A DNA stretch of 64,000 nt. It comes from a virus. The notes beneath the pieces are model-generated. The model was not told where the DNA came from, did no database searches, and saw only the letters and a list, made by a program, of their open reading frames with translations. The position numbers and the translations under genes are program-made. This document shows positions 29,937-63,432 of the stretch, one piece after another. Position 1 is the first letter of the stretch, and every line of letters begins with the position of its first letter. Location: positions 32,001 through 96,000 of IMG/VR virus record IMGVR_UViG_3300036834_000189. One strand, given 5' to 3'.

Positions 29937-30839
29937 ATGCCGCAGTCCCGCTCGATCAACAACTACAAGCCGGCCATACCCTACGACTACATCGGTCTGC
30001 AGCCGTCGCACAAGCGGCTGGTCGACGAGTATCTGGTCGATTTGAACATTGCGCAGGCGGCGCAGCGCTGCAACATCAACCTGACGACCGCCGAGCACAT
30101 CATCCGGCGTGACGACGTGCAGCGCGCGGTCAAGGAGCGCCGCACCTTTCTCGACAGTGGGCGTGCCCTCAAAGGCGCCAAGTTTGTGCTCGACAAGCTG
30201 TGGGAGGTGGCCACCGCCGACCCGCGCGATCTGGTGCAGATCTGGAAATTGCCGTGCCGCTTCTGCTGGGGATTGAACGGGCGCTACCAATTCACCAAAG
30301 CGGAGTTCGACCGGTTGTTGAAGGCGCATGAATACGGCTTGAGCGACCGCCCGTTCGACGCGTTGTGGCCGCGCTCCGACGCCGACCGCGCCGCCTGGGT
30401 GTGCGGCAAGAACCGGCTTGGTCTGGACACGCTCGGCGGCGACGGCTACACGACGCGCCGCGACCCCAACCCGAATTGCACCGAGTGCGCCGGTCAGGGG
30501 GTGACAATCAACGTGACCGCGGACACCCGCAAACTGTCCAAGGGCGCCCAGGCGCTGTATCGCGGCGTCAAGCTCGACAAGCAGGGCCGGATCGAGGTCC
30601 TGATGGCCAACGCCGATATCGCCAACGGTTTGTTGGCCAAGCACTATGGGATCATCGACAAGCACAAGGCCGGGTCCGGGGAGAGCATGACGATCGATCC
30701 GTCGACCTTGTCCGAGGAAGAACTGGCGCAGGCGATCACTCATCTGGAGCAGATGGTCGACGGCGAGTTCACGGTGATCGAGTCGGGTGCGCCGGTCGAG
30801 CAGATCGCACCACGCAAGCTCACTCGGCCGGTCGGATGA
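29937..30839 (+). CDS. terS: terminase small subunit
   Basis: VDEYLVDLNIAQAA N-terminus; CRFCWG...PNPNCTECAGQG; located upstream of TerL. Confidence 0.8.
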   Translation: MPQSRSINNYKPAIPYDYIGLQPSHKRLVDEYLVDLNIAQAAQRCNINLTTAEHIIRRDDVQRAVKERRTFLDSGRALKGAKFVLDKLWEVATADPRDLVQIWKLPCRFCWGLNGRYQFTKAEFDRLLKAHEYGLSDRPFDALWPRSDADRAAWVCGKNRLGLDTLGGDGYTTRRDPNPNCTECAGQGVTINVTADTRKLSKGAQALYRGVKLDKQGRIEVLMANADIANGLLAKHYGIIDKHKAGSGESMTIDPSTLSEEELAQAITHLEQMVDGEFTVIESGAPVEQIAPRKLTRPVG

Positions 30840-32345: not shown

Positions 32346-33932
32346 ATGCCCATGGAACGCCCCGCCGCCGAGCGTTATCTGCTGACCCTGCAGGACCGTG
32401 TCTATCGCGACGCGCTCGGCGCGCGCCGAGCGCAGCCGCGCGCCGAGGATTGGGCGTACGACTACAGCGGTCGACCGACCGCGTTTCTCGGCGAGCTGAT
32501 CGGGCCGCAGTGGCACGACGACGACTGGCTGGCGTGGCGGACCTTTATCAAGGCGGTGTTTGTCGAGCCGCTGACCACAGCCGGCGAGCATCGCATCTTC
32601 CAGCGCTGCACAAACCTGTCGACCCCGCCGACGACCAGACCGCCTTCGGTGTGGATGCCGATCGGTCGACGCGGCGGCAAGAGCCGCATCCTCGCCGCGA
32701 TCGCGGTCTATCTGGCGATGTGCTTCGACTGGTCGCATTACCTCGACCCCGGCGAGATCGGCGTCATCCCGGTACTGGCGATGGACCGCCGCCAGGCGCG
32801 TACGATCATGAGCTATGTCAAGGCGTTTGTGGCGCACGACAAATTGAAGGCGCGAGTGGTCGCCGAGTCGGCCGAGAGCATCGTGCTCAAAGGCAATCTG
32901 CTGATCGAGGTCGTCACGGCGTCGTTCCGCGCCGTGCGGTCGCGCACCGTGCTCGCCGCCTTGTGCGACGAGCTGGCGTTCTGGCGGAGCGAAGAGAGCA
33001 GCCTCAACCCGGATCGCGAGATCATCGCGGCGCTCGAACCGGCGATGGCGACAATCCCCAACGCTCTCCTGCTCGGCGCGTCGTCGCCTTATGCCCGGCG
33101 CGGCGTGTTGTGGGAGAATTACGACCGGTACTATGGCAGGACCGGCGGCCCGCTGATCTGGAAGGCCGCGACACGGGTCATGAACCCGACCGTGCCGCAA
33201 GCCTTCATCGACGCGAAATACGCCGAGGACCCGGTCGCGGCGCGCGCCGAATACGGCGCCGAGTTCCGTGTCGATGTCGACGCCTTCCTGACCCGCGAGG
33301 TCCTCGACGACGCGGTCGTGCGCGAGGTCCGCGAGCTGCCGCCCATGCCGCAGACCATCAAGTACCGGGCATTTGTCGACCCCAGCGGCGGATCGAGCGA
33401 CTCGATGACCTTGGCGATCGGTCATGTCGACAAGGAATCGAAGCGCGGGGTCGTCGATGTGGTCCGCGAGCGCCGCCCGCCGTTCTCGCCCGAGGCGGTC
33501 GTCACCGAGTTCGCCGAGCTGCTGCGCCTGTACCGGGTGTTTCGCGTCAAGGGCGACCATTACGGCGGCGAGTGGCCGCGCGAGCGCTTCCGCATCGCCG
33601 GCATCGATTACCAGGTCGCCGACAAGCGCAAATCCGACATCTATCTGGAGTTCCTGCCGCTGCTCAACGCCGGCCGTGTGCAGTTGATCGACGACCGCCG
33701 GCTCTACGACCAATTGCTCACGCTGGAGCGGCGCACCGCGCGCGGCGGGCACGAATCGATCGACCACCCGCCGCACGCGCACGACGATCTGGCCAATGTC
33801 GTCGCCGGGGTCATCGTCGACTTGCTCGCCAAGCGTCAGATGCTCGATGTCGACCCGTCGGTGCTGGCGCGGTCCCTGGTGTTCAATCGGCCATCGCTGG
33901 ACCGGCTCGCCGAGCCGGGTCCGCGATGGTAG
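32346..33932 (+). CDS. terL: terminase large subunit
   Basis: Walker A IGRRGGKS, Walker B LCDELAF, nuclease motifs VDPSGG and HDDLAN. Confidence 0.92.
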   Translation: MPMERPAAERYLLTLQDRVYRDALGARRAQPRAEDWAYDYSGRPTAFLGELIGPQWHDDDWLAWRTFIKAVFVEPLTTAGEHRIFQRCTNLSTPPTTRPPSVWMPIGRRGGKSRILAAIAVYLAMCFDWSHYLDPGEIGVIPVLAMDRRQARTIMSYVKAFVAHDKLKARVVAESAESIVLKGNLLIEVVTASFRAVRSRTVLAALCDELAFWRSEESSLNPDREIIAALEPAMATIPNALLLGASSPYARRGVLWENYDRYYGRTGGPLIWKAATRVMNPTVPQAFIDAKYAEDPVAARAEYGAEFRVDVDAFLTREVLDDAVVREVRELPPMPQTIKYRAFVDPSGGSSDSMTLAIGHVDKESKRGVVDVVRERRPPFSPEAVVTEFAELLRLYRVFRVKGDHYGGEWPRERFRIAGIDYQVADKRKSDIYLEFLPLLNAGRVQLIDDRRLYDQLLTLERRTARGGHESIDHPPHAHDDLANVVAGVIVDLLAKRQMLDVDPSVLARSLVFNRPSLDRLAEPGPRW

Positions 33933-34632: not shown

Positions 34633-36570
34633 TCACTGCCGGGTGGTCAGCAGATCCATGAACCGACCTTCGAACATCATGGCGGGCGGCTGCGGCCGGC
34701 GGCGCAATTCGCGGATCCTGCCCTTGTAGTCGCGCACCGTGTCGAAGCTGGCGAACAAGCTGCCGGTGCGGTCGCCGACGGTGATCTGGTAGCCCTCGGT
34801 GCGGCGGTCCTTGAGGAAGCCGCCGGTGCCCTCGCGCTGTGCGCGCTCGGCCTCCTCGGACTCGACCGTAGCCATCCAGCACGCCGTGATGACCGCGTAG
34901 CGCACCGCCTGGACCTTGACCAGCAGCGCGCGGAACAGCGCCATGGTGAGATCCTTCTCGAAGCCGCCGCCCAGCTGGATCGACTTGGGGTCGACGACGC
35001 TGGTCGCGCCGTCCGCGCCGTCCATGACGAACAGCGGCGGCAGATCCTTGCCCGCCGCCACTTTCCCGATCGCGCCTTGCAGATGGCGGCAATGAATTTC
35101 GAGATACTGCTCCAGCGAGGGCTCGGTCATCAGAGGTCGTCCATCACAGTGGTTTCCTCGTGTCGTGCGGCGTGCTGCTGCCGTCGGCGGCGCATACGAC
35201 CATGACCTTGTGCTCGTCCATTTGCTGGCAACCCAGAGCGGTCGGCTCGGTCATTTCGCCCTCGCTGCCCGCTTGCGGAATTCGTAGATCGCACTTTCGA
35301 GCGAGCGTCGGGCGTCGCCCTCGGCGTAACCCTCTTCCCACGCGTCGACGACGGCAAGGTAACGATCCGCCGCCCGGGCGAGATATTCGCCGAACTCGAT
35401 CGCGTAATCCTTCGAGGTGCGCTCGGGAGTACGTGCGTCGTGCGTCATGGCTTTGGGTTTCCTGGCCGTGCGGGTTCACTATAACTTGTCGATCTGCGCC
35501 GCGGCACGCTCCAGGATCCGCGCAATCCTGCTCCACACCCGGTGTGGGTCGCGATCCTGCCACGCGCTCTGCAGCACGCCAGCGCTCTCGTAATACTGCT
35601 CTGCGGCATGACGCAGGACCGCCGCGACCTTGTCCGGCGCGTCAACGTCGAGATCCAGGCTTTTCATAGCTGTTTCACTTCCAGATTTTGGGTCCATCAC
35701 ATTTGCCCCTTATCAATACTCGCTGGGCAGCAGGATGGTGCCGCCAGTGAACCACAGAGTAATTCCTCCCTCCGGGAAGTCGGTGTAGTCGATCCGTTTC
35801 GACCACACCTTGTTGTCGTTGCCATCCTCGACAAACAGTTTGGCGGTACCGTTTTCCGCGACGACGAGTTTCCACACCTGGAATTCTTCACGGCGGATCT
35901 TTGGGCGGTGCTGGCCAAAGGCGATCTCGTCCAAGAGCCAGTAGGCGCCGGCCGTCTCGGCGACGTACTGCACGCCCTCGGTGTAGAGGACGTTGCGCGC
36001 GAGACCGTGGCGGAACCATTGCTCGGTGCCGGTGAATTGACCCAGCACGACCGGGTCGAGTTTGTGGTTGGTCATTTCGGTCTCCGTGGAAGAGAGGGGC
36101 GCCTAGCGCGCCCCGTAGTGCAGTCGAATGCCGCGCGCGATCGCCGATTGGGTCGCGGCGTTCCATTGGTAGGCGCGGGCGTCCTGGACCATGTTGCGCA
36201 TCGCGTCGTGCAGGCCTTCGTTGCCGAGCGTGCCGAGGAAGTTCTCGACGGCGATCTTGCGGACGCCTTTGCGGGTCGCGAGCTGCTCGATTTGTTCACT
36301 AGTGATCATCGGTTCTCTCCGTGGATCAAGAGGGGATTAATAAAAGCACACGCCTTTGTCCCCGATGCTGACCGTGAGACCGCGCAGCGCCGCTTCCTGG
36401 TCGATGCCCTGCGTCGCAACGGTATCGCACCCTGCCGGCCAACGATCGATGAACCGGATGTAGATCCCGTCCCGCTCCTTACCCTCGACCCATACGGTCA
36501 TGGGTTCGTGCCGAATATTGCGGGCAGTCAGCCAGAAGTCGAAGCTGCTCAACCTGGTGGGCGTCGTCAT
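34633..36570 (-). other. minus-strand island of small hypothetical genes (34633-35130, 35251-35448, 35479-35700, 35713-36075, 36103-36309, 36337-36570)
   Basis: Consecutive short ORFs, several with GGAGA-type RBSs, downstream of the hairpin promoter at 36589-36644. Confidence 0.7.
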
Positions 36571-36588
36571 CGGTTCTCTCCGGTCGGT

Positions 36589-36644
36589 GGTGGGGCTCGA
36601 TTGCCCTACCCCTGCTTATATAGCGTGATTGACGAAAAAGTCAA
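36589..36644 (-). promoter_or_regulatory. promoter plus conserved leader hairpin (copy 3)
   Basis: TTGACT-16bp-TATATA, then GGTAGGGC-AATCGA-GCCCCACC. Confidence 0.75.
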
Positions 36645-36652
36645 GCACTAAA

Positions 36653-39600
36653 ATGAGCGACACCAAAATCACCAATCTGCAGGAAGTCGCACGGACCGAG
36701 AAGCCGATCTCGCGGATTCTCGACAGCGTCGTGGAGCACAGCGCGCGCAAGCCGCAGCCGTTCTCGGCGTACGACTTTGATCGTCTCAACCGGCTCTTTC
36801 CGCCGGTTGTCGAGAAGGCGGTACGCGACGCCGGCATCCCGACTCTGGCGCAAGACCAGACGGTCATGGGCACGTATGGCTGGGCGGCGCAGGATGTCAT
36901 CTACTCGGCGTTCGCCGAGGGCGTGGTCTTCCTCGGCTACAGCTATCTCGCGACCTTGGCGCAGCGCGCCGAGTACCGCGTCGTCACCGAGACGATCGCG
37001 GGCGAGATGACCCGCGAATGGATCGAACTCAAAGCCGCCAGCGGCGACGACAGCAAGCACGACCGGATCAAGGCGATCGAGGACCGGCTCGACGCGCTCG
37101 ACGCCCGCAACTGCTTTCGCAAATGCGCCGAGAGCGACGGGTTCTTCGGCCGCGGGCATCTGTACCTCGACACCGGGATGACCGACGATTCCGAGGAACT
37201 GCTCAGCGATCTCGGCAGCGGCCGGTCGGTGATGAGCCAGACCAAGATCGGCCCCGACAAGAACCAGAAGCTGATCGGACTGCAGCCGGTCGAGGCGACC
37301 TGGGCGTACCCGACGCATTACGAGTCGGTGGACCCGCTCAAGCGCGATTGGTACAGCCCGACGACCTGGTACATCATGAGCCGCGAAATCCACAAATCGC
37401 GATTATTGACATTTGTCAGCCGTGAAGTCCCCGACATCCTCAAGCCCGCCTACGCGTTTGGCGGATTGTCAATGTCGCAAATGCTCAAGCCCTACGTAGA
37501 CAATTGGTTGAGGACCCGCCAGTCAGTCTCTGATCTGATCCAGAATTTCAGCCACAACGTGCTGCACACCAACATGGACGCCACGACCGCGGTCGGCGGC
37601 GACAACATGTTCGCCCGCGTGGCGCTGTTCAACAACATCAAGAACAACCAGGGCACCATCCTGGTCGACAAGGACGCCGAGGACTGGAGCAATGTCAGCG
37701 TGCCGCTCGGCGGGCTCGATCACCTGCAGGCGCAGGCGCAGGAGCACATGGCGGCGATCGCCCGCATCCCGCTGGTCAAACTGCTCGGCATCCAGCCGGC
37801 CGGTCTCAACGCCTCGTCGGAGGGCGAGCTGATCTCGTTCGAGGACTGGATCGCCGCGTTGCAGGAACTGCTGTTCCGCAAGCCGCTGACCTCGGTCATC
37901 GACTTTGTCCAGTTGTCGATGTGGGGCTTTATCGACCACGACATCACGTTCGACTTCGTGCCGCTGCGCCAGCTCAAGCCGCAAGAGCAGGCAGAATTGA
38001 GTTCGACGGTCGCGCAGACCCGTGAACTCTACATGAACATGGGCGCGGTCGACGGCCAAGAGGTCCGTGAGGCGCTGGCGCAGGACGACGATGCGCCGTT
38101 CGCCGGTCTCGATTTGTCGCAGCCGCTGCCGCAGCCGCCGATGCCGCCGGGTGGAATGGGGGGACCCGGCGGCCCGGGTGGTCCTCCAGGCGGCGCGAAG
38201 CCCAATGGCGCGGGCGGCCCGCCGATGCAGCCGCCGATGGGGGATACAAGGTCGCCCGCGCTGCCGTTTCCGACCGGTGCGCGCGATGTTGGGATAGCAC
38301 GCGGGTTCGCGCACGACGCCGCGCTGCTGTCGCATGCGAGTGTCGCGTTCGAGCACCCGGCGCAAGGGGTCGACCACTGTGCGCAGTGCGGGCATTACCT
38401 CGGCGTCGACGACTGCGAGCTGGTGCGCCCGCCGGTCAAGCCGGCGGATTGGTGCGACCGGTTCACCGATGCCGAGGTCGAGGACGATGTCGAGGACGAC
38501 GACTTCGCCGAGGACGCCGACTGGGATCCGCAGGAGCATCCGCAAAGCGCGAAGACCGGCCAGTTTATCGCGAAGGGCACCAGTGAAGGCGGTGGCGCGA
38601 TCCCGGAGCCGCCGCAGATCCAGTCGCAGCACGCCGCGAACATCGGCAAGCAGAAGCACCTGGACGCATTGCACGCGCACGCCAAGGCGGGCGACTGGAG
38701 CAAGGTCGCGGCGTACCCGACACCGGGCACCAACACCTACGCGAAGAAGGTCCAGAAGTACAAGGCCGACCTGCTGAAGCTCGCGCCCAAAGGCGAGGGC
38801 GCGCCCAAAAGCGAGGAAGAAGCCGAAGCTTATAAACCCGAAGTGCCGGATTTTTACAAAAAGGATCTCGGCAAGCAGGGGTTCGGGTTTATGGGTGAGG
38901 GGTCGGGCGGCAGTCAGCTGTTCCAGGAACCAGCGACCCAGATTTCTGTGAAGGTCGAGCCCCCGGCGGCAGAGTCGGGCAACGCGACATGGTCGATCTT
39001 CGATAAAGCAGGCAAGGTAATCCAGGAGGGCGAGGCCGCTGGGCATCTGGAGTTCGCGGTTAAAAAGCACCTCGCCGCCGCCAAATCCGCTGGGCCGTCG
39101 CCCGAGCCCGCAGCCGCGCCTGAAGCCGCCAAAGTCACCTCCATGGAGGTGACCAAAACAGCCCAAGGCATGGGGTTTGAGGTAGCCGGTTACGGTGAAA
39201 TGGTCAACCCGGCCACCGGTCATGTTCTCAAGGTGGACCCCGGCGGTAAATGGACGATCAAGGAGAAGAACGGCGATCTCGAAGCAAAGGGCGACAGCTT
39301 TGCAGAACTGAAGAGTGCCCTTGAATTTGGTGCGGTAAACGGTCCTGTCACTTGGGGATCACCAAAACTTGAAGCCGAAACCGAGGCTGCGACTAAAGAA
39401 GCCGCGTCCGTGGTCAAGCCCAAGGGCGCCAGCAAGATTTACTCGCACGAGACCGCCACGAAATGGGCCGCCGACCCGAAAGCCGTCTCCGAGCCCGCGC
39501 TTCGCTACTCGAATGGCGACGCCACAAACGAGACCGAGACCTTGGTCATCGGTACCGGCGCCAAAAACCAGGGCAAGTGGCAGATCTGGAAGAAGGGCGA

Positions 39601-41524
39601 GGGGGTTGTCGCCAAGGGTTCTGGTCAGGACGAGCTGAACGCCGCGTTCGAGGAGTTGCACCCGCGCGGGCCGGGCGGCAAGTTCGCCAAGAAGTCCAGC
39701 GAGGTCGAGCACTGGACCGCCAGCAGCCCGATGCCGGACGAGCTGAACGGTGTCGCGTTCAAGCCGTTCAACGCGCCCACCACTACCGCGGGCTGGAACA
39801 AGGTCGCCGGGCAGAAGCCCGATCTCGTCGAGCCGGATATAGAGGTTCCTCCCGGCAAGCATGTGAGCGCCGGGCTATTGATCCAGGAACCGGATGGTCG
39901 CGTGTGGCTGGTCAAGCCGAAGGGTGGTTATGGCGATTACAACTACACATACCCGAAGGGGACGCAGGACCCGGGACTGTCGTTGCAGGCGACCGCGATC
40001 AAGGAAGCGTTCGAGGAGTCGGGTCTGCACGGCGAGATCACCGGGCTGGCGGGTGACTACCTCGGCGAGACCAGCATCACGCGGTATTATCTCGCCAAGC
40101 GGATCGGCGGCTCGCCGACCCAGTTCGAAAAGGAGAGCGAAGGCGTCAGTCTGGTCCCGCCCGAGAAGCTGCACGACTTCCTGAACAAGGAGCGCGACCG
40201 GAATATTGCGACCAACCACTTCATCGCGCCGCCCAAGCCGGTCATCGGCAAGACGGTCGATACCGGCGCGATGAAAAAGGTCGGCGGGAAACTCGGCAGC
40301 AACCCCGGAGCGCAGTACGAGGACGACGAGGGCAACAAGTATTACGCCAAGTTCCTCAAGTCGCCCGATCACGCCAAGAACGAGTTGCTGGCTGCCGCGC
40401 TCTACAATGCGGTGGGCTCGCCGACCCTCAACTATCACCCCGACAAAGACCCCAAGAATGTCGTCACCGACTGGCAGGAGCCCGACAAGAAAGGCGGCGT
40501 GAAGAATTTCACCCCGGACGAGAAGCGCGAGGCGCAGAAGCATTTCGCAACGCATGCGTGGCTGGCGAACTGGGATGCCGCTGGTTTGGGCGGCGACAAT
40601 CAGCAGATCATCGGCGGCAAGCCGATGACCGTCGATGTCGGCGGTGCATTACTCTACCGCGCGCAGGGCGATTCCAAAGGGTCGGCGTTCAACACCGCGG
40701 CGAGCGAGTGGGAGACGATGCGCGACGCCAAGACCAACAAGGATTCGGCGGATCTGTTTGGCGGCATGACGCCCGCGATGCTGAAAAACTCGGCCGACCG
40801 GCTGGGACAGATCACCGATTCGCAGATCCGCAACCTGGTCGACGTGCACGGGCCGGGCTCGACAGTCGAGAAATCGGCGCTCGCCGCGATGCTGATCAAG
40901 CGCAAGGAGAACATCCTGGCCAAGGCGGTCCCGCCCGCGCCGCCAAAGCCCGCCGAGCCGCAGCATCATCCCACCGGTTATGCGCTGCCGACCACGAATT
41001 CTCCCGGCGCCGCGATGCCGGCGCTGAACGACGCGGCGCCGCCGACGGCATCGGGGGTGCAGCGCACCGCGATCAAGAATTACACCGATCACCATTACCG
41101 TGAGATCAACCAGCAGCTGCGCTATGGACTGGTCAGCGAGCACGGCCAATACGGCAAGACCATCTCTCAGCTGACCGACTGGCTCGACAAGGCGGACTTC
41201 CCCGAGGACCGCGTCTTGACCCGCGGCGTCGATGGTTCATACGCCGAATTTCTCAAGGGGCTGCACATCGGCTCCGAGTTTCGCGATGTCGGGTTTGTAT
41301 CGATGAGCGTCAAGAAAGACCCGCCGATGGGGTCTCATACGATCATGGAAGTGCGGGTGCCCAAGGGTTCGAAAGCCGCCTCGGCGCATCATATCAGCGA
41401 TCACCATACCGAGTACGAAGTCATCGGCCAGCGCGGCAGCTACCTGCGTCTGGTTGGCAAGATGCCGAATGGCCGATTGATTGTTGACTTGTTGCCGCCA
41501 ACATATGAACCGAAGAAGAAGTGA
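36653..41524 (+). CDS. portal protein (DUF1073-like) fused to Cys-cluster, NUDIX, HipA/PI3K-like kinase and ADP-ribosyltransferase domains
   Basis: Portal motifs IPLVKLLGIQPAGLNASSEGE and IHKSRLL; Nudix box PKG........TAIKEAFEESG; kinase-like GSNPG/YAK/NE/WLANWD/VDVGG; ART R...SMS...EYE. Confidence 0.85.
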   Translation: MSDTKITNLQEVARTEKPISRILDSVVEHSARKPQPFSAYDFDRLNRLFPPVVEKAVRDAGIPTLAQDQTVMGTYGWAAQDVIYSAFAEGVVFLGYSYLATLAQRAEYRVVTETIAGEMTREWIELKAASGDDSKHDRIKAIEDRLDALDARNCFRKCAESDGFFGRGHLYLDTGMTDDSEELLSDLGSGRSVMSQTKIGPDKNQKLIGLQPVEATWAYPTHYESVDPLKRDWYSPTTWYIMSREIHKSRLLTFVSREVPDILKPAYAFGGLSMSQMLKPYVDNWLRTRQSVSDLIQNFSHNVLHTNMDATTAVGGDNMFARVALFNNIKNNQGTILVDKDAEDWSNVSVPLGGLDHLQAQAQEHMAAIARIPLVKLLGIQPAGLNASSEGELISFEDWIAALQELLFRKPLTSVIDFVQLSMWGFIDHDITFDFVPLRQLKPQEQAELSSTVAQTRELYMNMGAVDGQEVREALAQDDDAPFAGLDLSQPLPQPPMPPGGMGGPGGPGGPPGGAKPNGAGGPPMQPPMGDTRSPALPFPTGARDVGIARGFAHDAALLSHASVAFEHPAQGVDHCAQCGHYLGVDDCELVRPPVKPADWCDRFTDAEVEDDVEDDDFAEDADWDPQEHPQSAKTGQFIAKGTSEGGGAIPEPPQIQSQHAANIGKQKHLDALHAHAKAGDWSKVAAYPTPGTNTYAKKVQKYKADLLKLAPKGEGAPKSEEEAEAYKPEVPDFYKKDLGKQGFGFMGEGSGGSQLFQEPATQISVKVEPPAAESGNATWSIFDKAGKVIQEGEAAGHLEFAVKKHLAAAKSAGPSPEPAAAPEAAKVTSMEVTKTAQGMGFEVAGYGEMVNPATGHVLKVDPGGKWTIKEKNGDLEAKGDSFAELKSALEFGAVNGPVTWGSPKLEAETEAATKEAASVVKPKGASKIYSHETATKWAADPKAVSEPALRYSNGDATNETETLVIGTGAKNQGKWQIWKKGEGVVAKGSGQDELNAAFEELHPRGPGGKFAKKSSEVEHWTASSPMPDELNGVAFKPFNAPTTTAGWNKVAGQKPDLVEPDIEVPPGKHVSAGLLIQEPDGRVWLVKPKGGYGDYNYTYPKGTQDPGLSLQATAIKEAFEESGLHGEITGLAGDYLGETSITRYYLAKRIGGSPTQFEKESEGVSLVPPEKLHDFLNKERDRNIATNHFIAPPKPVIGKTVDTGAMKKVGGKLGSNPGAQYEDDEGNKYYAKFLKSPDHAKNELLAAALYNAVGSPTLNYHPDKDPKNVVTDWQEPDKKGGVKNFTPDEKREAQKHFATHAWLANWDAAGLGGDNQQIIGGKPMTVDVGGALLYRAQGDSKGSAFNTAASEWETMRDAKTNKDSADLFGGMTPAMLKNSADRLGQITDSQIRNLVDVHGPGSTVEKSALAAMLIKRKENILAKAVPPAPPKPAEPQHHPTGYALPTTNSPGAAMPALNDAAPPTASGVQRTAIKNYTDHHYREINQQLRYGLVSEHGQYGKTISQLTDWLDKADFPEDRVLTRGVDGSYAEFLKGLHIGSEFRDVGFVSMSVKKDPPMGSHTIMEVRVPKGSKAASAHHISDHHTEYEVIGQRGSYLRLVGKMPNGRLIVDLLPPTYEPKKK

Positions 41525-41535
41525 GGAGAACCGCG

Positions 41536-41718
41536 ATGAGCGACGACAAGCAAAGCGATCGTGACGACAAATTTACCTACAAGCAAGGCGACCTCGAATT
41601 GGTGTACGAGCCGACAACCGGTCCAAAGGTCGGTGACACGATCGTCGACCTGTCGCAGCCGGGCGAAGGCGCAGGCGAGGAATCCGAGGAAGCCGAGGAA
41701 TCCGAAGAGTCGGAGTAA
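41536..41718 (+). CDS. small acidic protein (candidate immunity or partner of the ART)
   Basis: GAGGAG RBS directly after the ART domain; highly acidic. Confidence 0.5.
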   Translation: MSDDKQSDRDDKFTYKQGDLELVYEPTTGPKVGDTIVDLSQPGEGAGEESEEAEESEESE

Positions 41719-41985
41719 GCAGGAGGATCACGAAAATGTCGGATCTCGACAAATTGTGGGTGATGTTTCATCGCTACGAACCGATGCTTGCCGAGCAGTA
41801 CGCCGCGTGGCTGGCGCAGCAAACGCCGCCCGCCGAGCCGGCGTCCGAGGAAGCCGAGCCGGCGCCCGATGAAGAGCCGGGCGGCGAAGAGCCGGGAACC
41901 GGGCATCTCACCCGGCCTACCGGCGACCCGCGGACCACGACTCGACACACCACGACGACCACGACTCGCACGTGATGGCGAAACG

Positions 41986-43248
41986 ATGCCCGCCGATCAG
42001 AACGGTGCGCAGTTCCTCGGGCAGTTGAAGACCGCCGTCCGCGGACTTCTGGCGTGGCTGAGCGAGGAAGCGGACGAGCCCGAGCACCCGTCAGCACAAG
42101 CCGGGATGATGCCCAGGGGGCGTCTGCCTAGCCCTGGGGGCGGTGCCGGGGGCGATGCCGGGGGCGATGCCGGCAGCCCGACTACGGCGAGCCCAGCCGG
42201 CCCGCAGGGCACCACGGGGGGTGGTGTAAAGGGCGGCGGCACCAAGGACACCTCGCTCAACGCACCAGCCTCGCTCGAAGCGGGATCGTTCCGCGAGCCG
42301 CACCTGACCGAAGCCGGCAACCCGCGTGTGCCGCTGCAGGACTGCGGCGACGCGACAAACAATGGCGGTTGGGGCTCGCCGCCGATCAAGCCGCGTCCCT
42401 CGGTCGACGCGCGCAGCGGCGGGCGTACCGGCTGGCGTTCACCGTCGTTTGATCTGGCGCCGTCTCAGTCTCGGTTTACGGCTCCAGGACGGCGGAACAA
42501 TGTCGCGACCGATCCGCCGGTCTCGGAGGCGCAGCGCCGCGCGATGGGTGCGGCGAAGAGCGGGCGGTCCAATCTCGGGATCCCGCAATCGGTTGGCAAG
42601 GAGTTCATCGAGGCCGACCCCGGCGGCAAATTGCCGGCGACCACTGACCAGCGCGGCGCGATCTCGACCGATCCGATCCACGCGCAAGCATTGCGCAGCG
42701 CCCCGGTGAGCAGCCAGGTGCTCAACCCGCCGGTGGCGACACCGCGCGCCGCTGATCAGCCCGAGCTGCGCGAGGCGCACCAGGGGTCGACGGTCGACCC
42801 GGCCAAAGCCTACCATCTGAACCAGTTCAAGCAGAAAGAGCACCTATACAATTCGATGAAGGGTCAGCAGGTGCCGACGGTGTTTGCCGACAAGCATTTG
42901 AAGGATCTCGACAACCTGCAAAAACAAATGCTGGAGCATGCGCAGCACGGCGGGTTCGCGCACGGCCAGCAGTCGCCGGGGGCCGAGGGCGACCATGGGA
43001 TGACCGGCACGGCGGGAACCGCCAACTGGCAGTCGCCGATGTTCCCGTCGACTGACGCCGGCACTCCCGAGGGTGCGCGCAAAGCGGCGCAGACCCGCGC
43101 CGGTGGTGCCGGTGGTGCAGCTCTGCGCTCGCAGATGGGGAAGGGGCCATCTCCCCTAAAGCCGTATAAGCCTAGCGGTGCCGAGTCGCGAGCCAAAAGG
43201 CGCGAAGCCGGATCGCCGTACCGCCCGCCGACTGGTGGTTGGTCGTAA
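41986..43248 (+). CDS. low-complexity putative head-internal protein
   Basis: Between portal and protease; repeated WxSP and xTD motifs; VSEAQRRAM.AA..G.S.LGIP..VGKEF module. Confidence 0.55.
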   Translation: MPADQNGAQFLGQLKTAVRGLLAWLSEEADEPEHPSAQAGMMPRGRLPSPGGGAGGDAGGDAGSPTTASPAGPQGTTGGGVKGGGTKDTSLNAPASLEAGSFREPHLTEAGNPRVPLQDCGDATNNGGWGSPPIKPRPSVDARSGGRTGWRSPSFDLAPSQSRFTAPGRRNNVATDPPVSEAQRRAMGAAKSGRSNLGIPQSVGKEFIEADPGGKLPATTDQRGAISTDPIHAQALRSAPVSSQVLNPPVATPRAADQPELREAHQGSTVDPAKAYHLNQFKQKEHLYNSMKGQQVPTVFADKHLKDLDNLQKQMLEHAQHGGFAHGQQSPGAEGDHGMTGTAGTANWQSPMFPSTDAGTPEGARKAAQTRAGGAGGAALRSQMGKGPSPLKPYKPSGAESRAKRREAGSPYRPPTGGWS

Positions 43249-43261
43249 GAGGGTACTGAAC

Positions 43262-44152
43262 ATGTGGTCTTCACCGCGGTTCCCGGTCATGGCATTGGAC
43301 GCCGTGAAACACGATCCGCATACCGGCCAATTCACCAGCGGTGGCGGTGGTGGTGCGCCCACTGGCAAGTTTACCGCATCCCATCTCGATCAGCTGCGCA
43401 GTCAGATGAGCGGGATCAAGCGCATCGATCCGTCATCGCCGTCTTACAAAAAGATGACCGCGCATCTCGACTCATTGAACCCGGCGCAGTTGAAACAGAT
43501 ACACGAAGCCAAGATCCCGTTCTTGAGCAATCTGGCTCATAACCGAATCATCCGCGCCGCCAATAAGCCCCCAGCGACCGACGCCGGCACCAGCGAGGGC
43601 GCGCGCAAAGCCGCCGCGACTCGTGCGTCTGGGGGAGGCGGTGGTGATCCCAAAGCCGAGCACCGAACCGCTCACGCCTATCACAAGGCCCAGGGCATCG
43701 CCGGGAAAGAAGGTCATGGAGCCGCGGCGGCGCTGCATCAGCACGCGTTTCATATGCATACGAACATAAACCCGATGGTGCGCAGCAAGGCTGGAGAGGC
43801 GTCGCAAAAGGCTTGGGCAGCTTCTGAGAAGCTCGGTTACAAGCCCCCAGCGACCGACGCCGGCACTAGCGAAGGGGCGCGCAAAGCGGCTGCGACGCGC
43901 GCAGCAGGAGGCGCCGCTCCCGCCAAAAAAATAGCTGAATCTGGAGGCCAGAAGTGGATTTCCTCTGGTGGTGGGGCATATAAACCAATCGGTAAGTTTT
44001 CTGTTCACAAATACGAAGAAAATAGTGAACCAAGTTTACATAATATGGTTCACCATACTAATAGTGAGCAGGAGGCTAATAAGAAAGCTAGTAATCTTTG
44101 GCAGAAGACTGGTATTCCACATATTACTAGACATACTCAATATTTACGATGA
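43262..44152 (+). CDS. putative head-internal modular protein
   Basis: Leader WSSPRFPVMALDA, then HDPHTGQFTSGGGG and two TDAGTSEGARKAAATRA repeats. Confidence 0.6.
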   Translation: MWSSPRFPVMALDAVKHDPHTGQFTSGGGGGAPTGKFTASHLDQLRSQMSGIKRIDPSSPSYKKMTAHLDSLNPAQLKQIHEAKIPFLSNLAHNRIIRAANKPPATDAGTSEGARKAAATRASGGGGGDPKAEHRTAHAYHKAQGIAGKEGHGAAAALHQHAFHMHTNINPMVRSKAGEASQKAWAASEKLGYKPPATDAGTSEGARKAAATRAAGGAAPAKKIAESGGQKWISSGGGAYKPIGKFSVHKYEENSEPSLHNMVHHTNSEQEANKKASNLWQKTGIPHITRHTQYLR

Positions 44153-44377
44153 ATCCGGGGTAAGAAGCCCGACGACGCCGCGGTGAAGGCGCGTGTATGA
44201 AGACGGTGTACCGGTGGGTCCGGATGCTCCTGGTCGACGCCGGTATGTGGTATTTGAGGTGGGTGGTGCCGCGCGATCAGCGGCTGGTGATCACAATCGA
44301 TCCGGTTGAAGAGCCGGACTTCACCTGGCTGATCGACAAGCCAAAAACCAAGATCGATGAGGACGCTTAGATCCGGC

Positions 44378-46045
44378 ATGTTCGAGCATCTGGCGCTTGA
44401 TCAAGCGACTGTGCGCAGCCGCAGTGAAGACGGGCATCTGCACGTCGGCCAGTCGAACATCTCGAAAGCCACGGTCAACCCCTATTGGGGCCGCGAGATA
44501 CCAGGCTACGACGAACTCGGTCTGGACCCCGACAAGAAGTACCTGCTGTGGCGGCACCCCGGCGAGCTGGCGAAGGGGGCCAAGACCTTCAACAACCTGC
44601 CGATCATGGCGGACCACGTCCCGATCAGCGCCGACAAGCACCGCCCCGATCTGGTGATCGGCTCGACCGGGACCGACGCGCAGTTCGCCGATCCCTACCT
44701 CAGAAACTCGCTGGTGTTCTGGACCAAGCCGGCGATCGACGCGATCGAGAGCAACGAGCAAAAAGAGCTTAGCGCCGCTTATCACTATGTCCCGGTGATG
44801 ACCCCGGGTGTCACGCCCGACGGTCAGCGCTACGACGGCATCATGACCCAGCTACGCGGCAATCACGTTGCTTTGGTGGAAGACGGACGCGCTGGGAAGG
44901 ATGTCGTCGTTGGCGATTCTGCTTTTGACCCGACCGCTGCAAGCGGCATTGCAAGGAGTACCCAAATGGCAAAACTAGCGCCTGCTGGCTTGGTAGCGCG
45001 CAGTGCTCTGTTCACCTACCTGTCGCCGCGGCTGGCGGCCGACCAGTCGATCGATCTCAACAGTCTGGTCGCCGGGATCACCTCGAAGAACTATGCGGCG
45101 CGGCGCGGTGCATTGAAAGACAAGGTAACCGCCGCGGCGCGTGGCAAGCTCGCGATGGACGCCGATCTGCGGGATCTGGCGAACCTGCTCGACGCGTTGT
45201 CGCCCGACGCCGAAAGCGCCGACCAGCTGACGACCGCGCCGTCAGCCGGTCCGCCGATGGGCGCCGTGGGGGGCGGCGCTGCCCCACCGATGGACGCCGA
45301 GCCACACGACACTCTGGCGAAGATCAAGGCGTTTCTCGAAGAGCAGGGGGTCAGCCCCGAGATCATCAACAATCTCGACGCCTTCGCCGCCAGCGCCGGG
45401 CAGCCGCCAAATGGCGCTGGCGGCAACGGACCAGCGCCCCCGCCGCCGCCTCCGGGACCCGGCGACCGGCGCACCGCGGGCGATCAGGGTCCGGCGAATG
45501 CCGGCATGTTCGCCAAGGAGAAGACCGGTGCGGACGAGGGCATGGAGACGCGCGGCGAGGAGGGCGAGGGGGAGCCGAGCGAGCTGTCCATCGACCAGGA
45601 GGAAGCCTGTGACGAGGACGAGACCGAGGAAGAGCGGAAAAAGCGAGAGGCGGAGGACGAAGTGATACCCAACAAGCAGGACGACGTGGATGGCGTGGTC
45701 ACCAAGAGCGCCATGGACCGGGCGATCAAGATCGCCCAGGACCGCGCGATCCGCAATCAGCGGGCGGTGCGCGACGCCGAGCGTTTTGTGCGCCCGTGGG
45801 TCGGCGATCTCGCGATGGACGCGATGCACCCGGCCGATATTTACCGGACCGCATTGAAGTCGCTCGGGGTGCGCGGTGCCGACACAATGCACAACGACGC
45901 GCTGCGCCCGGTGCTCGAAGCGCAGCCGCGACCGTCGCGGACGACGGGCCGGGTTGGTGTGCCGCGCGATATGGCGGCCGACGCCAAGCCGCAGCAGAGC
46001 TTTTTGGAGCGGTTTCCGGAAGTGAAGGGCGTTCGGCTGCAGTAA
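44378..46045 (+). CDS. prohead protease/scaffold (DUF2213 family)
   Basis: DGHLHV..SNISKA.VNPY.GREIP, KELSAAY and [17 protein letters not shown]; disordered scaffold-like C-terminus. Confidence 0.85.
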
Positions 46046-47649: not shown

Positions 47650-48810
47650 ATGGAAAATTTCAGCAGTGCACGGGCCGCCTGGCAGTCCGACCGCGCCGAG
47701 TGGGAAGCAAAGGGTGTCGTTCTCCCTGGGGTGACCAGCTATCTGCCCACCGAGTGGAAGAACAACAGCAAGCTCGCGATGGACGAGATGGACCGGATGG
47801 CGCAGGACATGATGCCGTACGGCTACGGTCACAACTCGATGGCGATGGATGCGCCGCCGCTGCTCTACACTCAGCCGAACTCGGCGGTGCCGGCGCTCCT
47901 CACCACGACAATCGACCCCGATGTCTTCCGCATCCTGTTCAGCCCGAACAAGGCGGCGGAAGCGCTCGACGGCGAGGTCAAGCGCGGCACCTGGCTCGAC
48001 GATGTGATCTTCTTCCCGGTGGTCGAGGCGACCGGCGAAGTATCGTCATACGGCGATTACAGTGAACAAGGCAATGCCGGGGTCAATGTCAACTGGCCCT
48101 CCAGACAAAACTACCTCTTTCAAGTCATCAAGGAATATGGTGAAAGAGAAGTCGAGCGCGGTGGCCTTGCGAGAATTAACTGGGTCAGCGAGATCGACCG
48201 CGCCGCGGCATTGACGATTGCCAAGTTTCTCAACATGGCGTATCTCTTTGGAGTCGCCGGCCTGCAGAATTTCGGGCTCGCCAATGATCCGAACCTGTCG
48301 GCGGCGCTGACCCCGGGACCCAAGATCGCGGGCGGCACGCGGTGGGTCATCAACGGTGTGGTCAACGGCAGCGCCAACGAGATCTATCTCGACATCGAAT
48401 CGCTGTACTACCAGCTGGTGGTCCAGACCGGTGGTCTGGTCGAGCTGGACTCGGATTTGAAGCTCCTGATGTCGCCCGGCTCCTCGGTGGCGATGACCGC
48501 GACCAACTCGTACGGCGTCAATGTCGGCGACCTGATCACCAAGAACTTCCCCAATCTGGAGGTCATCACGATCCCGCAATACGCGGCGCGGTCCAGTGTC
48601 ATGCCGCAGGGGGTCGCGGCCGGCGAGTTTGTCCAGATGATCACGATGGCGGTCGAAGGGCAGAAGACGGCGTTTCCGGCCTACTCAGAAAAAATGCGAG
48701 CGCATCCAGTAATTCGGGCACGCTCTTCTTTCAGCCAAAAAGTTTCCGCCGGGACCTGGGGTACCGTCATGCGCATGCCAGCTGCGGTCTCCAGCATGGT
48801 TGGCGTTTGA
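47650..48810 (+). CDS. major capsid protein (DUF2184-like)
   Basis: VEATGEVSSYGDYS, GL.NDPNL, EKMRAHPV and QKVSAGTWG; position after protease and decoration genes. Confidence 0.88.
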   Translation: MENFSSARAAWQSDRAEWEAKGVVLPGVTSYLPTEWKNNSKLAMDEMDRMAQDMMPYGYGHNSMAMDAPPLLYTQPNSAVPALLTTTIDPDVFRILFSPNKAAEALDGEVKRGTWLDDVIFFPVVEATGEVSSYGDYSEQGNAGVNVNWPSRQNYLFQVIKEYGEREVERGGLARINWVSEIDRAAALTIAKFLNMAYLFGVAGLQNFGLANDPNLSAALTPGPKIAGGTRWVINGVVNGSANEIYLDIESLYYQLVVQTGGLVELDSDLKLLMSPGSSVAMTATNSYGVNVGDLITKNFPNLEVITIPQYAARSSVMPQGVAAGEFVQMITMAVEGQKTAFPAYSEKMRAHPVIRARSSFSQKVSAGTWGTVMRMPAAVSSMVGV

Positions 48811-58263: not shown

Positions 58264-59025
58264 ATGCAGTCGGCACGCGACCGTTTTGCCCGTGCCCGCC
58301 GCGCCGAGGTGCGTTACGGCATCCAACTGCGCCAGATCGCGCGGCAGATCAATGCCTTTGTGCACGGGATCTTCCACCCGCAGGACCCGGCCACCGCGTC
58401 GTACCTCGAACGCACATTGCACGACTACGAGGACACGATCCGACCGTGGGCCGAATCAGTCGGTCGGCGCATGCTGGTCGATGTCAGCCAACGCGACTTC
58501 ACGGCGTGGCTTGAGCACGGCAAAGCGATTGGCAGAGCCTTACGGGGGATTGTCGAGACCGCGCCGATCGGCAATGAGTTCCGCCAGTTGCAGGACACCC
58601 AGGTCGACCTGATCACCAGCATTCCGCGCGACGCCGCTCAACGGGTGCACGACCTCAGTCTGGAGCATCTGCTCCAAGGTCGGCGGTGGGAAGAAGTCGC
58701 GCGCGACATTCTCGACCAGGGCGATGTCAGCCGGTCAAAAGCCAATCTGATCGCGCGGACCGAGACCTCGCGCGCCGCTGGCCAGTTCACGATGGTCCGT
58801 GCGATGCACATGGGCAGCGAGGGGTACATCTGGCGGACCGTGCGCGATGCCGATGTTCGGCTCGAACACCGCAAGCTGGAGGGCACGTTTCAGCGTTGGG
58901 ACAGCCCGCCGGTCGCCGGTTATGGGCGCGGGCACTCGGAGCAGCGGTATCATCCAGGGGGCGGGCCGAATTGCCGCTGTATGAGCGAGCCGGTAATGCC
59001 CGACGAGCCGCAAAAGGGCTATTAA
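58264..59025 (+). CDS. minor head protein (MuF / SPP1 gp7 family)
   Basis: LIARTET, YIWRT..D..VR..H..LEG and HPG...NCRC. Confidence 0.9.
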   Translation: MQSARDRFARARRAEVRYGIQLRQIARQINAFVHGIFHPQDPATASYLERTLHDYEDTIRPWAESVGRRMLVDVSQRDFTAWLEHGKAIGRALRGIVETAPIGNEFRQLQDTQVDLITSIPRDAAQRVHDLSLEHLLQGRRWEEVARDILDQGDVSRSKANLIARTETSRAAGQFTMVRAMHMGSEGYIWRTVRDADVRLEHRKLEGTFQRWDSPPVAGYGRGHSEQRYHPGGGPNCRCMSEPVMPDEPQKGY

Positions 59026-61935: not shown

Positions 61936-63432
61936 ATGGCGCTCGGCTTGCCGGTCTCCCGGCTGATCAATGTTACGGTAAACATCAACCCGGCGGCGAT
62001 CCCGTTTGCCAATTTCGACTCGCTGTTGGCGGTCGGCGACAGTCCGGTGATCGACACGCAGGAGCGTATCCGCGCCTACGGGTCGCTGGGGGAGGTGGCC
62101 GATGATTTCGGCACCGCCGCGCCTGAATATGCCGCGGCGAGCCTATTCTTCGGCCAAACTCCGCAGCCTGCCTCGCTGTTCATCGGGCGCTGGGCGCACA
62201 CCGCGACGAACGGTGAACTCTATTGCGGGCCGCTGACTGTCACCGAGCAGCAGATGGCCAACTGGACCAACATCACGAACGGCTCGTTCGAGATCTCGAT
62301 CGACGGCACGGCGCACGCGATCACCGCGCTGACTTTCTTGGGCACCAGCAATTTGAACGGGGTCGCGGCGGCGATCCAGACCGAGCTACACACGGCGGGG
62401 GCGACCACGGCCACGTGCATTTGGAACGGGTTGCAGTTTCAGTTTGGCTCGGGCACCACCGGGCCGGCTTCGACGGTCAGCTATCTGACCGCGGTCAGTC
62501 CGACCAGCGGTGTCGACATCAGCGCGCAGCTCAAAGGCACCGCGGCGCTGGCGCAGCGCAATGTCGCGGGCGCGCCCGCCGAGAGTGCGCTCGACGCGGT
62601 CATCGCGCTCGACGGCATCGGCACCTACTGGTACGGACTGACATTTGCGTCGCCGAATATCGTCGATGCCGATCGTGAGGCGATTGCCCAGTACATCGAA
62701 GGCGCCAACAACAAGCACGTCTTCGGGATCAACACCAACAATCCGGTGGCGCTGACCAATACCGACAACTCCAGCATCGGGTATGTGCTGAAGCAGGCCG
62801 GCTACCGTCGCAGCTTCTGCATGTACTCATCGACGAACCCTTATGCGGTGTCGGCGTTTTTTGGGCGCGCCTTCACAGTCGACTTCCTCGGCTCCAACAC
62901 CGCCATTACGATGATGTGGCAGGAGCTGGCCGGGATCACGCCGGAATATCTCGGGACCGCCCAGGCCGACGCGCTCGACACCAACAATTACAATTACCTT
63001 GCCGAGTTCAACAATCAGCGCGCCATCGTCATGAACGGCAAGATGTGCGCCGACTACTTCTTTGATGAAGTGTGGGGTTCCGACTGGCTGGCGGGTGGTA
63101 TCCAGACTGCGCTGTTCGATCTTCTGAGCACGATCCGCACCAAGGTGCCGCAGACCGATTCCGGCATCCACATGCTGACCAACATCTGCACGGCGACTTG
63201 TGCGCAGGCGGTGGTCAACGGCTATGTCGCGCCGGGGCAATGGAACGCCGCGGGGTTTGGGATACTGCAGACCGGCGAATACCTGGACAAGGGATTTTAC
63301 GTCTACGCGCCGCCAATGGCGACTCAGCCACAGCCCGACCGCGAGGCGCGCAAGAGCCCATTGATCCAGATCGCGGTCAAGCTGGCTGGCGCGATCCACA
63401 CGGTCGACGTGCTGATCAATGTGAACCGCTAA
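61936..63432 (+). CDS. tail sheath protein (DUF3383 family)
   Basis: LPVSRLINVTV, PEY.AA..FF.Q.PQP..L.IGRW, KVPQTD.G and KLAGAIH.VDV.INVNR. Confidence 0.9.
   Translation: MALGLPVSRLINVTVNINPAAIPFANFDSLLAVGDSPVIDTQERIRAYGSLGEVADDFGTAAPEYAAASLFFGQTPQPASLFIGRWAHTATNGELYCGPLTVTEQQMANWTNITNGSFEISIDGTAHAITALTFLGTSNLNGVAAAIQTELHTAGATTATCIWNGLQFQFGSGTTGPASTVSYLTAVSPTSGVDISAQLKGTAALAQRNVAGAPAESALDAVIALDGIGTYWYGLTFASPNIVDADREAIAQYIEGANNKHVFGINTNNPVALTNTDNSSIGYVLKQAGYRRSFCMYSSTNPYAVSAFFGRAFTVDFLGSNTAITMMWQELAGITPEYLGTAQADALDTNNYNYLAEFNNQRAIVMNGKMCADYFFDEVWGSDWLAGGIQTALFDLLSTIRTKVPQTDSGIHMLTNICTATCAQAVVNGYVAPGQWNAAGFGILQTGEYLDKGFYVYAPPMATQPQPDREARKSPLIQIAVKLAGAIHTVDVLINVNR

Follow-up and report, generated by a model that had tools for sequence, protein, structure and literature searches.

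A phage portal gene that continues into a predicted chain of effector enzymes in an uncultured myovirus

The portal-cargo gene and its enzyme domains

The DNA examined here (the window) is a stretch of 64,000 nucleotides, positions 32001-96000 of the IMG/VR record IMGVR_UViG_3300036834_000189, which is 116,206 bp long and derives from an uncultured phage. Its head module contains a gene that encodes a portal protein and, in the same open reading frame (ORF), about 1,130 further residues of cargo. The cargo includes three predicted enzyme domains, a NUDIX domain, a protein-kinase-fold domain and an ADP-ribosyltransferase (ART). Coordinates are window positions, and residues are numbered from the ATG at 36653 (Table 1). 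From this ATG, a single frame on the plus strand runs to 41524 without a stop, for 1623 codons; an in-frame TTG upstream, at 36629, is an alternative start and would give 1631. GC content at third codon positions (GC3) was at coding level along the entire ORF (0.87 in the portal, 0.77-0.85 in the cargo parts), and the 4.9 kb are free of stops in sequence of 62% GC. An initial annotation had described one uninterrupted ORF with a portal, a Pro/Gly linker and a series of domains. This was borne out by the frame, with Pfam hits where the domains had been placed, and the cysteine cluster, two HP..G.F motifs, Nudix box and R-SxS-ExE residues of the ART were all found in the places it had given. A megablast comparison of 20 kb around the gene with cultured phages returned no match.

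The portal part scored 238 bits against Phage_portal_3 (gathering cut-off 33.8), covering profile positions 2-354 of 357, and matched phrog_146 at E 4e-93. It is 40-44% identical to portals of cultured phages and gave a single match in its own 116-kb record, in which it is the only portal detected. Among solved portals, gp19 of phages E217 and Pa193 is nearest (E 3e-32 over residues 209-481; PDB 8fvh, 9b41). In these proteins, a C-terminal helical barrel is directed into the head, and a further 237 residues (529-765) are without density (PMC10329688, PMC11456595). By homology with these portals, the cargo is expected in the capsid interior, above the portal, in twelve copies. All three phages are myoviruses with the same portal family and a C-terminal extension past the barrel, which in E217 and Pa193 lies unseen inside the head. 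The extension of E217 and Pa193 is 237 residues long, however, with no enzyme domains assigned in either paper, whereas here it is about 1,130 residues long and includes three enzymes. The linker that follows the portal contains a run of six G at 38158-38163. In an alternative-frame check, a +1 shift at this run met a stop about 130 nt on, which would give a portal of about 545 residues without cargo.

All three enzyme domains retain catalytic-type residues that are conserved across relatives. The ART, the last domain of the protein, scored 51-58 bits against a gathering cut-off of 23.4. Its motifs are R1524, S1550-M-S1552 and E1587-Y-E1589, the R-S-E pattern of the Arg-specific type, and family members keep R, S-x-S/T and E-x-E. 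The nearest solved ART sequences are Listeria Lmo0066 (8za7_B, E 4.7e-10) and VIP2 (1qs2).

The NUDIX domain scored 41.5-46.3 bits against a gathering cut-off of 21.1. Its Nudix box reads G1103-x5-L1109-x7-K1117-E1118-A-x-E1121-E1122-x-G-L, compared with the canonical GX5EX7REUXEEXGU. K-E-A-x-E-E is present in at least 80% of 66 NUDIX family members, and the lysine is family-wide. By sequence, the nearest solved NUDIX proteins are the Ap4A hydrolase 3i7u (E 4.5e-6) and Ndx1, which are Ap4A/Ap6A hydrolases. Since these are ApnA hydrolases, the sequence gives no indication of an ADP-ribose- or NAD-specific role. NUDIX and kinase domains were adjacent, in either order, in 71 pairs, with a median gap of 39 residues. 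The two domains are almost always neighbours and go together as one unit.

The kinase domain was modelled by AlphaFold from an alignment that included stand-alone homologues of about 229 residues. Foldseek placed Helicobacter pylori CtkA first among matches to the model (E 2.5e-7). VIA-align gave CtkA a Z of 15.2 (root-mean-square deviation 3.5 A, 210 of 232 residues), followed by HipT/HipA (Z ~11), LepB (10.8) and Rio kinases (~10). Pfam returned no match for residues 1190-1459 at E<=10, HipA_C, HipA_2 and PI3_PI4_kinase included, and PDB sequences were not matched by the single sequence or by a profile; a language-model atlas gave weak leads only, to LepB_N, PI3_PI4 and HipA_2. The earlier call of a HipA/PI3K-like kinase was therefore right at the level of the fold, although no Pfam family recognises the domain. 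Judged by its model, the domain is CtkA/HipA-like in fold and forms a family of its own by sequence. K1233, E1244, D1308, N1316 and D1328 are invariant in the homologue alignment. This pattern fits a kinase active site, in which the individual roles and the equivalence to CtkA residues are presumptive. CtkA and HipA/HipT share the kinase fold and the Lys/Glu/Asp/Asn/Asp pattern with this domain but have no detectable sequence similarity to it; here there is no HipB/HipS-type partner, and a NUDIX nearly always accompanies the domain. A literature search for a phage CtkA-like kinase with a Nudix domain found nothing relevant.

The same kinase was also seen together with domains of the protein tyrosine phosphatase or dual-specificity phosphatase type (PF22784, PF05706, PF22785) in proteins P0059, P0060 and P0085, which are 406 residues long and encoded on contigs of 77-263 kb. 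One such kinase-phosphatase fusion is recorded from Pseudogemmobacter blasticus.

Table 1. Features of the portal-cargo gene and its surroundings.
Feature	Window position	Strand	Residues	Basis or remark
Portal domain, PF06381/Phage_portal_3	36653-38122	+	1-490	Pfam residues 97-456, E 1.4e-70
Pro/Gly-rich flexible linker	38123-38287	+	~490-545	Translation
HiPIP-like four-cysteine domain	38288-38479	+	546-609 (C576, C579, C588, C601)	Profile and BLASTP matches to HiPIPs
Junction motif copy 1, degenerate	38516-38566	+	622-638 (W624..P626..H629-P-Q..G636-Q-F638)	Motif scan, logo
Predicted helical hairpin	38630-38782	+	~660-710	AlphaFold model m693d2968c584, pLDDT ~68
Three tandem small alpha-beta5-alpha domains	38852-39658	+	734-812, 830-895, 926-1002	AlphaFold
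Junction motif copy 2	39647-39685	+	999-1011 (F-E-E-L-H-P-R-G-P-G-G-K-F)	Motif scan, logo
NUDIX domain	39857-40204	+	1069-1184 (Pfam)	Pfam E 1.6e-10 (whole protein), 5.5e-12 (piece)
CtkA/HipA-like atypical protein-kinase-fold domain	40238-40933	+	1196-1427	AlphaFold, pLDDT 95.5
VIP2/C3/Alt-type ADP-ribosyltransferase (ADPrib_exo_Tox, PF03496)	41051-41524	+	1467-1598 (Pfam)	Pfam E 1e-13 (whole protein), 8e-16 (piece); followed by the stop codon
Small acidic ORF	41536-41718	+	60 residues long	GAGGAG ribosome-binding site
Small terminase (TerS)	29937-30839			Head module gene
Large terminase (TerL)	32346-33932			Head module gene
Unannotated ORF	35542-36651	+		Stops one base ahead of the portal ATG
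Two low-complexity ORFs	41788-43248, 43178-44152	+		Between portal-cargo gene and protease
Prohead (head-maturation) protease, DUF2213/PF09979 type, long C-terminal extension	44357-46045	+		phrog_2229 E 1e-111; Pfam DUF2213 E 5e-45
Major capsid protein	47650-48810			Head module; preceded by a minor head protein gene
MuF head-morphogenesis protein without cargo domain	58264-59025	+	253 residues long	phrog_324 E 4.5e-59; Pfam Phage_Mu_F residues 127-240
Tail sheath	61936-63432			Preceded by a neck protein gene

The four-cysteine domain, the junction motif and the mid-region

Four cysteines with the spacing C576-x2-C579-x8-C588-x12-C601 (nt 38378-38455) lie just past the linker, and they and their flanks align with copies in five related loci. 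A profile of the phage copies together with the query matched high-potential iron-sulfur proteins (HiPIPs) in the PDB: PioC (6xyv, E 3.5e-11), 3h31 (2.7e-7) and 1hlq (2e-3). All four cluster-binding cysteines are aligned in this match, as is the flanking Y/W/G pattern, apart from the usual Gly ahead of W-C, which the query copy lacks. The query alone matched the NCBIfam model of the Iro iron oxidase, a HiPIP, at E 1.4e-5, under the model cut-off, and it did not reach the Pfam HIPIP model (PF01355). By BLASTP, it matched P0090, a Pfam HIPIP member, at E 5e-8, without gaps to both P0090 repeats.

A whole-library search with the profile gave 4775 matches at E<=0.001, and most of those listed were small proteins. 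Ten listed matches of at least 540 residues were scanned with Pfam. Among these, six carried DUF2213, the kind of domain found in the prohead protease of this phage, two carried an ART, one of them with a NUDIX as well, and one had no Pfam match; an Acb1 anti-CBASS fusion and an intein-containing portal were also present. On this profile evidence, the cysteine cluster is a HiPIP-like domain, putatively of the 4Fe-4S type, and recurrent on portals and prohead proteases. The initial annotation had recognised neither this nor that its HP..G.F motifs are a widespread module-junction motif. Known HiPIPs such as PioC and Iro are alike in their alignable cysteines and Y/W/G flanks, but those are periplasmic electron carriers, whereas here the domain is internal to a cytoplasmically made virion protein that has no signal peptide. 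A tblastn search of cultured phages with a phage HiPIP-like copy returned no match, and a literature search for HiPIPs in phages found nothing relevant.

The Acb1 fusion and the intein-containing portal (the P0137/P0231 pair) are a 1306-residue protein with an Acb1 anti-CBASS phosphodiesterase domain and a 1732-residue portal of the same family, which the intein splits. The HiPIP-like domain is present in both.

The HPx..G(Q/K)F motifs of the initial annotation proved to belong to a linear motif of about 20 residues, [FW]-x-E-x-x-H-P-R-x3-4-G-K-F-x-x-G-x-G-G. Two copies lie in the protein, with cores at residues 629-638 and 1003-1011; an acidic run precedes copy 1, and the columns of copy 2 are invariant in the alignment with relatives. 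In a loose form, the motif occurred 130 times in 132 related proteins, compared with about 9 occurrences expected from shuffled sequences. Strict copies fell outside mapped domains in 97 of 109 cases, and E(-3) was present in 88 of 92 distinct copies. The first copy lay 42-78 residues past the portal end in 15 of 30 portal fusions. Only 2 of the 71 NUDIX-kinase pairs had the motif between the two domains. It was also seen near the N-terminus of some stand-alone kinase proteins, and close to the start of the second low-complexity ORF downstream lies a variant, KHDPHTGQF. From its position, the motif is a candidate cleavage or docking site. The HiPIP-like domain is followed by the motif within about 30 residues in the query, L005, L023 and P0017, and it tends, by sequence, toward the anchor side of the first junction. 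We found no paper describing the motif in a literature search, nor any description of it, or of the HiPIP-like domain, in the papers on polyvalent proteins that were searched.

Residues 640-1010 were modelled from 9 sequences, with a mean predicted local distance difference test (pLDDT) score of 69.6 and about 80 within domains. The predicted helical hairpin in this region is homologous in relatives P0003 and L030. Three small domains follow, and when these were compared with the PDB nothing rose above noise (Foldseek E>=5e-3; best VIA Z 7.5); the language-model atlas gave no usable match for them. Med17, a Mediator fragment, was considered as their fold and rejected, its Z of 7.5 being within the noise band. 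Frataxin, type III secretion system chaperone and immunity-protein folds were also set aside, with only scattered Z values of 5-6. The third small domain is kept in at least 10 relatives and is, with the second junction motif, the best-conserved part of the mid-region.

Recurrence and gene neighbourhood

Homologues of the cargo and of its kinase domain were collected. The search with the cargo (residues 540-1623) gave 53 long homologues, of which 11 carry the same portal family, PF06381. Others carry MuF, the prohead protease PF04586, or WGR, Zeta toxin or other Pfam domains, and some have no recognised anchor. The nearest cargo homologue, P0003 (53% identity), is a stand-alone protein of 992 residues without a portal.

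A profile scan with the kinase domain found it encoded on 376 IMG/VR contigs; a scan of viral contigs with the NUDIX-kinase-ART region as a single protein gave no match. Locus counts refer to the best 80 of these 376 loci, which are independent assemblies from many samples. A portal of the same family shared the open frame of the kinase in 30 of the 80 loci, a prohead protease did so in 11, and a portal or DUF2213 protease lay within 10 kb in 61. The same cargo domains occur on MuF and protease anchors and as free genes. Kinase plus NUDIX, as predicted from sequence, is the most widespread cargo unit. Since the fusion recurs in frame in independent assemblies from many samples, it is a recurrent natural architecture and not a join made by an indel. 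The 30 in-frame fusions thus provide comparative evidence against a false join and for a portal and cargo that are truly joined, as the initial annotation had it.

Among cultured phages, the kinase domain was found in only 20 of 50,697 records, and on a portal in none. Eleven Gordonia phage records of 113-122 kb have it. In cultured phages of about 90 kb, a 1,200-residue 'ADP-ribosyltransferase' has the kinase at its C-terminus, and a small ORF and then a NUDIX gene come after it; Pseudomonas phage Jeremy (L001, 4087-9072) and Aeromonas phage ST4 (L002, 3692-8502) provide examples of kinase and NUDIX regions. The cultured phages with the kinase domain are usable experimental handles.

The genes around the fusion form a head-and-tail module in the order TerS, TerL, portal-cargo, two low-complexity ORFs, protease, minor head protein, major capsid protein, MuF, neck and sheath. 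The module includes a tail sheath, and the phage is therefore a myovirus, with a contractile tail. The protease gene lies 2.8 kb downstream of the portal-cargo gene and is the sole protease of the module. MuF had been described as bare, and it is indeed a short protein with no cargo domain.

The ORF immediately upstream of the portal has an unusual GC content by codon position (0.75/0.44/0.62), yet homologues of its residues 56-184 are present in the related loci L030, L062 and L059. This ORF is probably a genuine head-module gene that lacks annotation. The two low-complexity ORFs share a repeat, TDAGT(S/P)EGARKAA(A/Q)TRA, found once in the first and twice in the second. The first also holds a segment of about 40 residues, SEAQRRAMGAA..GIPQSVGKEF, which is kept in 8 related loci and in one relative, L005, lies in one ORF with the HiPIP-like domain, kinase and protease. 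Both are probably additional head-internal proteins. The small acidic ORF directly after the fusion was also considered as its partner or as an immunity factor. Family searches gave no match for it, none of the 80 related loci has a homologue nearby, and its candidacy as a conserved immunity or partner protein was rejected.

Interpretation and comparison with known systems

We favour, with moderate confidence, the reading that this is a portal-anchored 'polyvalent' effector protein with cargo that is packaged, freed and delivered to the host with the DNA. The enzyme chain probably travels inside the capsid until its release into the host. As the head matures, the prohead protease of DUF2213 type would free the cargo from the portal ring, and it may also cut between modules, at or near [FW]xExxHPRx3-4GKF. 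For the enzymes to reach the host, the cargo would have to be cut from the portal. At infection, the freed enzymes would exit with the DNA and act ahead of any phage gene expression. There, host proteins would be targets both of the ART, for ADP-ribosylation, and of the CtkA/HipA-like kinase, for phosphorylation; the expected substrate of NUDIX hydrolysis is a nucleoside-diphosphate-X compound (ApnA, ADP-ribose or an NAD-derived compound). Host takeover, blunted defence or both would result. Cleavage, injection and action against NAD+/nucleotide-signal defences, as the initial annotation proposed them, are likewise predictions. The presence of the cargo domains also on MuF and protease anchors fits swappable, head-packaged cargo. 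A portal anchor of this kind would provide ready-made host-modifying enzymes at DNA entry, before phage genes are read.

Several observations weigh against this reading. The record is a metagenome assembly with a completeness rating of 87%. No experiment in which portal-fused cargo is cleaved or injected was found in the literature searched, and the substrates assigned to ART, kinase and NUDIX are predictions. The Nudix box is off consensus at two positions, E->L and R->K, with its E..EE core intact. Both copies of the junction motif are degenerate here, copy 1 being without E(-3) and R(+2), and the interval between kinase and ART has no clear copy. A processing peptidase (zincin-like MPTase) was not found in the chain at E<=1 for the whole protein or E<=10 for pieces. 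Separately from these points, a search for a sequence tag common to the cargo and the protease or scaffold protein gave only Pro/Gly low-complexity matches, and PADLOC found no defence-family match in the cargo.

The degenerate motifs and the lack of a dedicated peptidase in the chain are also what favours another account, in which the cargo remains covalently attached to the portal without ever being injected. Inside the head, it might then serve as a spacer or internal body for organising or retaining DNA, or its enzymes would act only late, in the producing cell, before assembly. The 237-residue tail of the E217 and Pa193 portals is merely disordered inside the head, and about 500 residues of the present protein (linker, HiPIP-like domain and three small domains) are non-enzymatic and look structural. 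However, the catalytic-type residues of ART, kinase and NUDIX are kept in many relatives, which is hard to square with a role that is structural only. These enzymes are found, moreover, as free genes or attached to MuF or a protease, as deliverable cargo would be, and a prohead protease is encoded close by. We regard permanent retention of the cargo on the portal as rather unlikely.

Two products might also be made from the gene, by slippage at the G6 run or by internal processing, with most of the twelve subunits as plain portal and a few with cargo. The G6 run lies in the linker, where the stop in the +1 frame would yield a short portal, and twelve cargos of 120 kDa around one channel may be crowded. 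The G6 site, however, lacks a recognised slippery heptamer and a stimulatory structure, no dedicated slippage search having been made beyond the frame check, and no observation requires two products. A short portal by frame slippage is unlikely, and the two-product arrangement as a whole is improbable. That the fusion is an artefact, through an assembly or sequencing indel joining two genes or as a decaying pseudogene, is very improbable: the contig is metagenome-assembled with a homopolymer in the junction region and its nearest cargo homologue stands alone, but in-frame fusions of this portal family to the same cargo domains are present at 30 independent IMG/VR loci and in 11 database proteins, GC3 coding signal and a stop-free frame cross the junction, and active-site residues are intact.

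We offer a further proposal tentatively, as one with a small chance of being right. The HiPIP-like domain and the adjacent junction motif would jointly form a head-interior 'hinge' conserved in this phage lineage, a metal-cluster domain (possibly 4Fe-4S) beside a portal or DUF2213 anchor, that marks or controls effector release; separately, NUDIX and kinase would be an unnamed, pre-made counter-defence unit that enters with the DNA. Both the four-cysteine domain and the motif offer concrete sites for mutation in tests of processing and release.

The ART of T4 Alt belongs to the same family, PF03496, and Alt is likewise encoded among late genes and predicted in the head (PMC5512222). Alt differs in being a free protein with an N-terminal capsid-targeting sequence that is cut by gp21, whereas the present ART ends a portal fusion as its final domain, and the portal-cargo protein showed no T4-like capsid-targeting sequence. 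The cultured phages of about 90 kb (Pseudomonas phages Jeremy and Dolphis, Aeromonas ST4 and Yersinia fHe-Yen8-01) have the same kinase (38-44% identity) and the same NUDIX family. In these phages, however, the domains are off the portal, the NUDIX has a gene of its own and the surrounding genes do not form a head module.

The closest known systems are the polyvalent proteins defined by Iyer et al. in 2017, which include portal fusions to PBECR, 2H and InPase and have ART and kinase domains as common components (PMC5512222). Fusions of ART and Nudix to the portal are mentioned explicitly in a later paper (Iyer et al. 2022, PMC9503650). The present protein shares with them several unrelated enzyme domains in one polypeptide, fusion to a head anchor, here a portal flanked by terminase, protease and capsid genes, and the same prediction of packaging and injection. 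The initial annotation had presented cargo on the portal instead of MuF as unusual; this did not hold, since portal fusions to ART, Nudix, 2H, PBECR and InPase had already been described and are common in IMG/VR. Its general idea of a head-packaged effector chain agrees with the published predictions (PMC5512222, PMC9503650). There are differences: MPTase, proposed by Iyer et al. as the processing enzyme and frequent but not universal in polyvalent proteins, was not detected here, and HiPIP or iron-sulfur domains are not mentioned in the 2017 paper (PMC5512222). The full CtkA/HipA-like fold seen here may or may not correspond to the 'C-terminally truncated' kinase family of Verrucomicrobia and Bacteroidetes prophages in that paper (PMC5512222). 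The protein is a rich example of a kind already published, from computation only, and no new class of system. Its additions are modest: a kinase with a CtkA-like fold that pairs with a NUDIX, a HiPIP-like domain, and the motif at module junctions.

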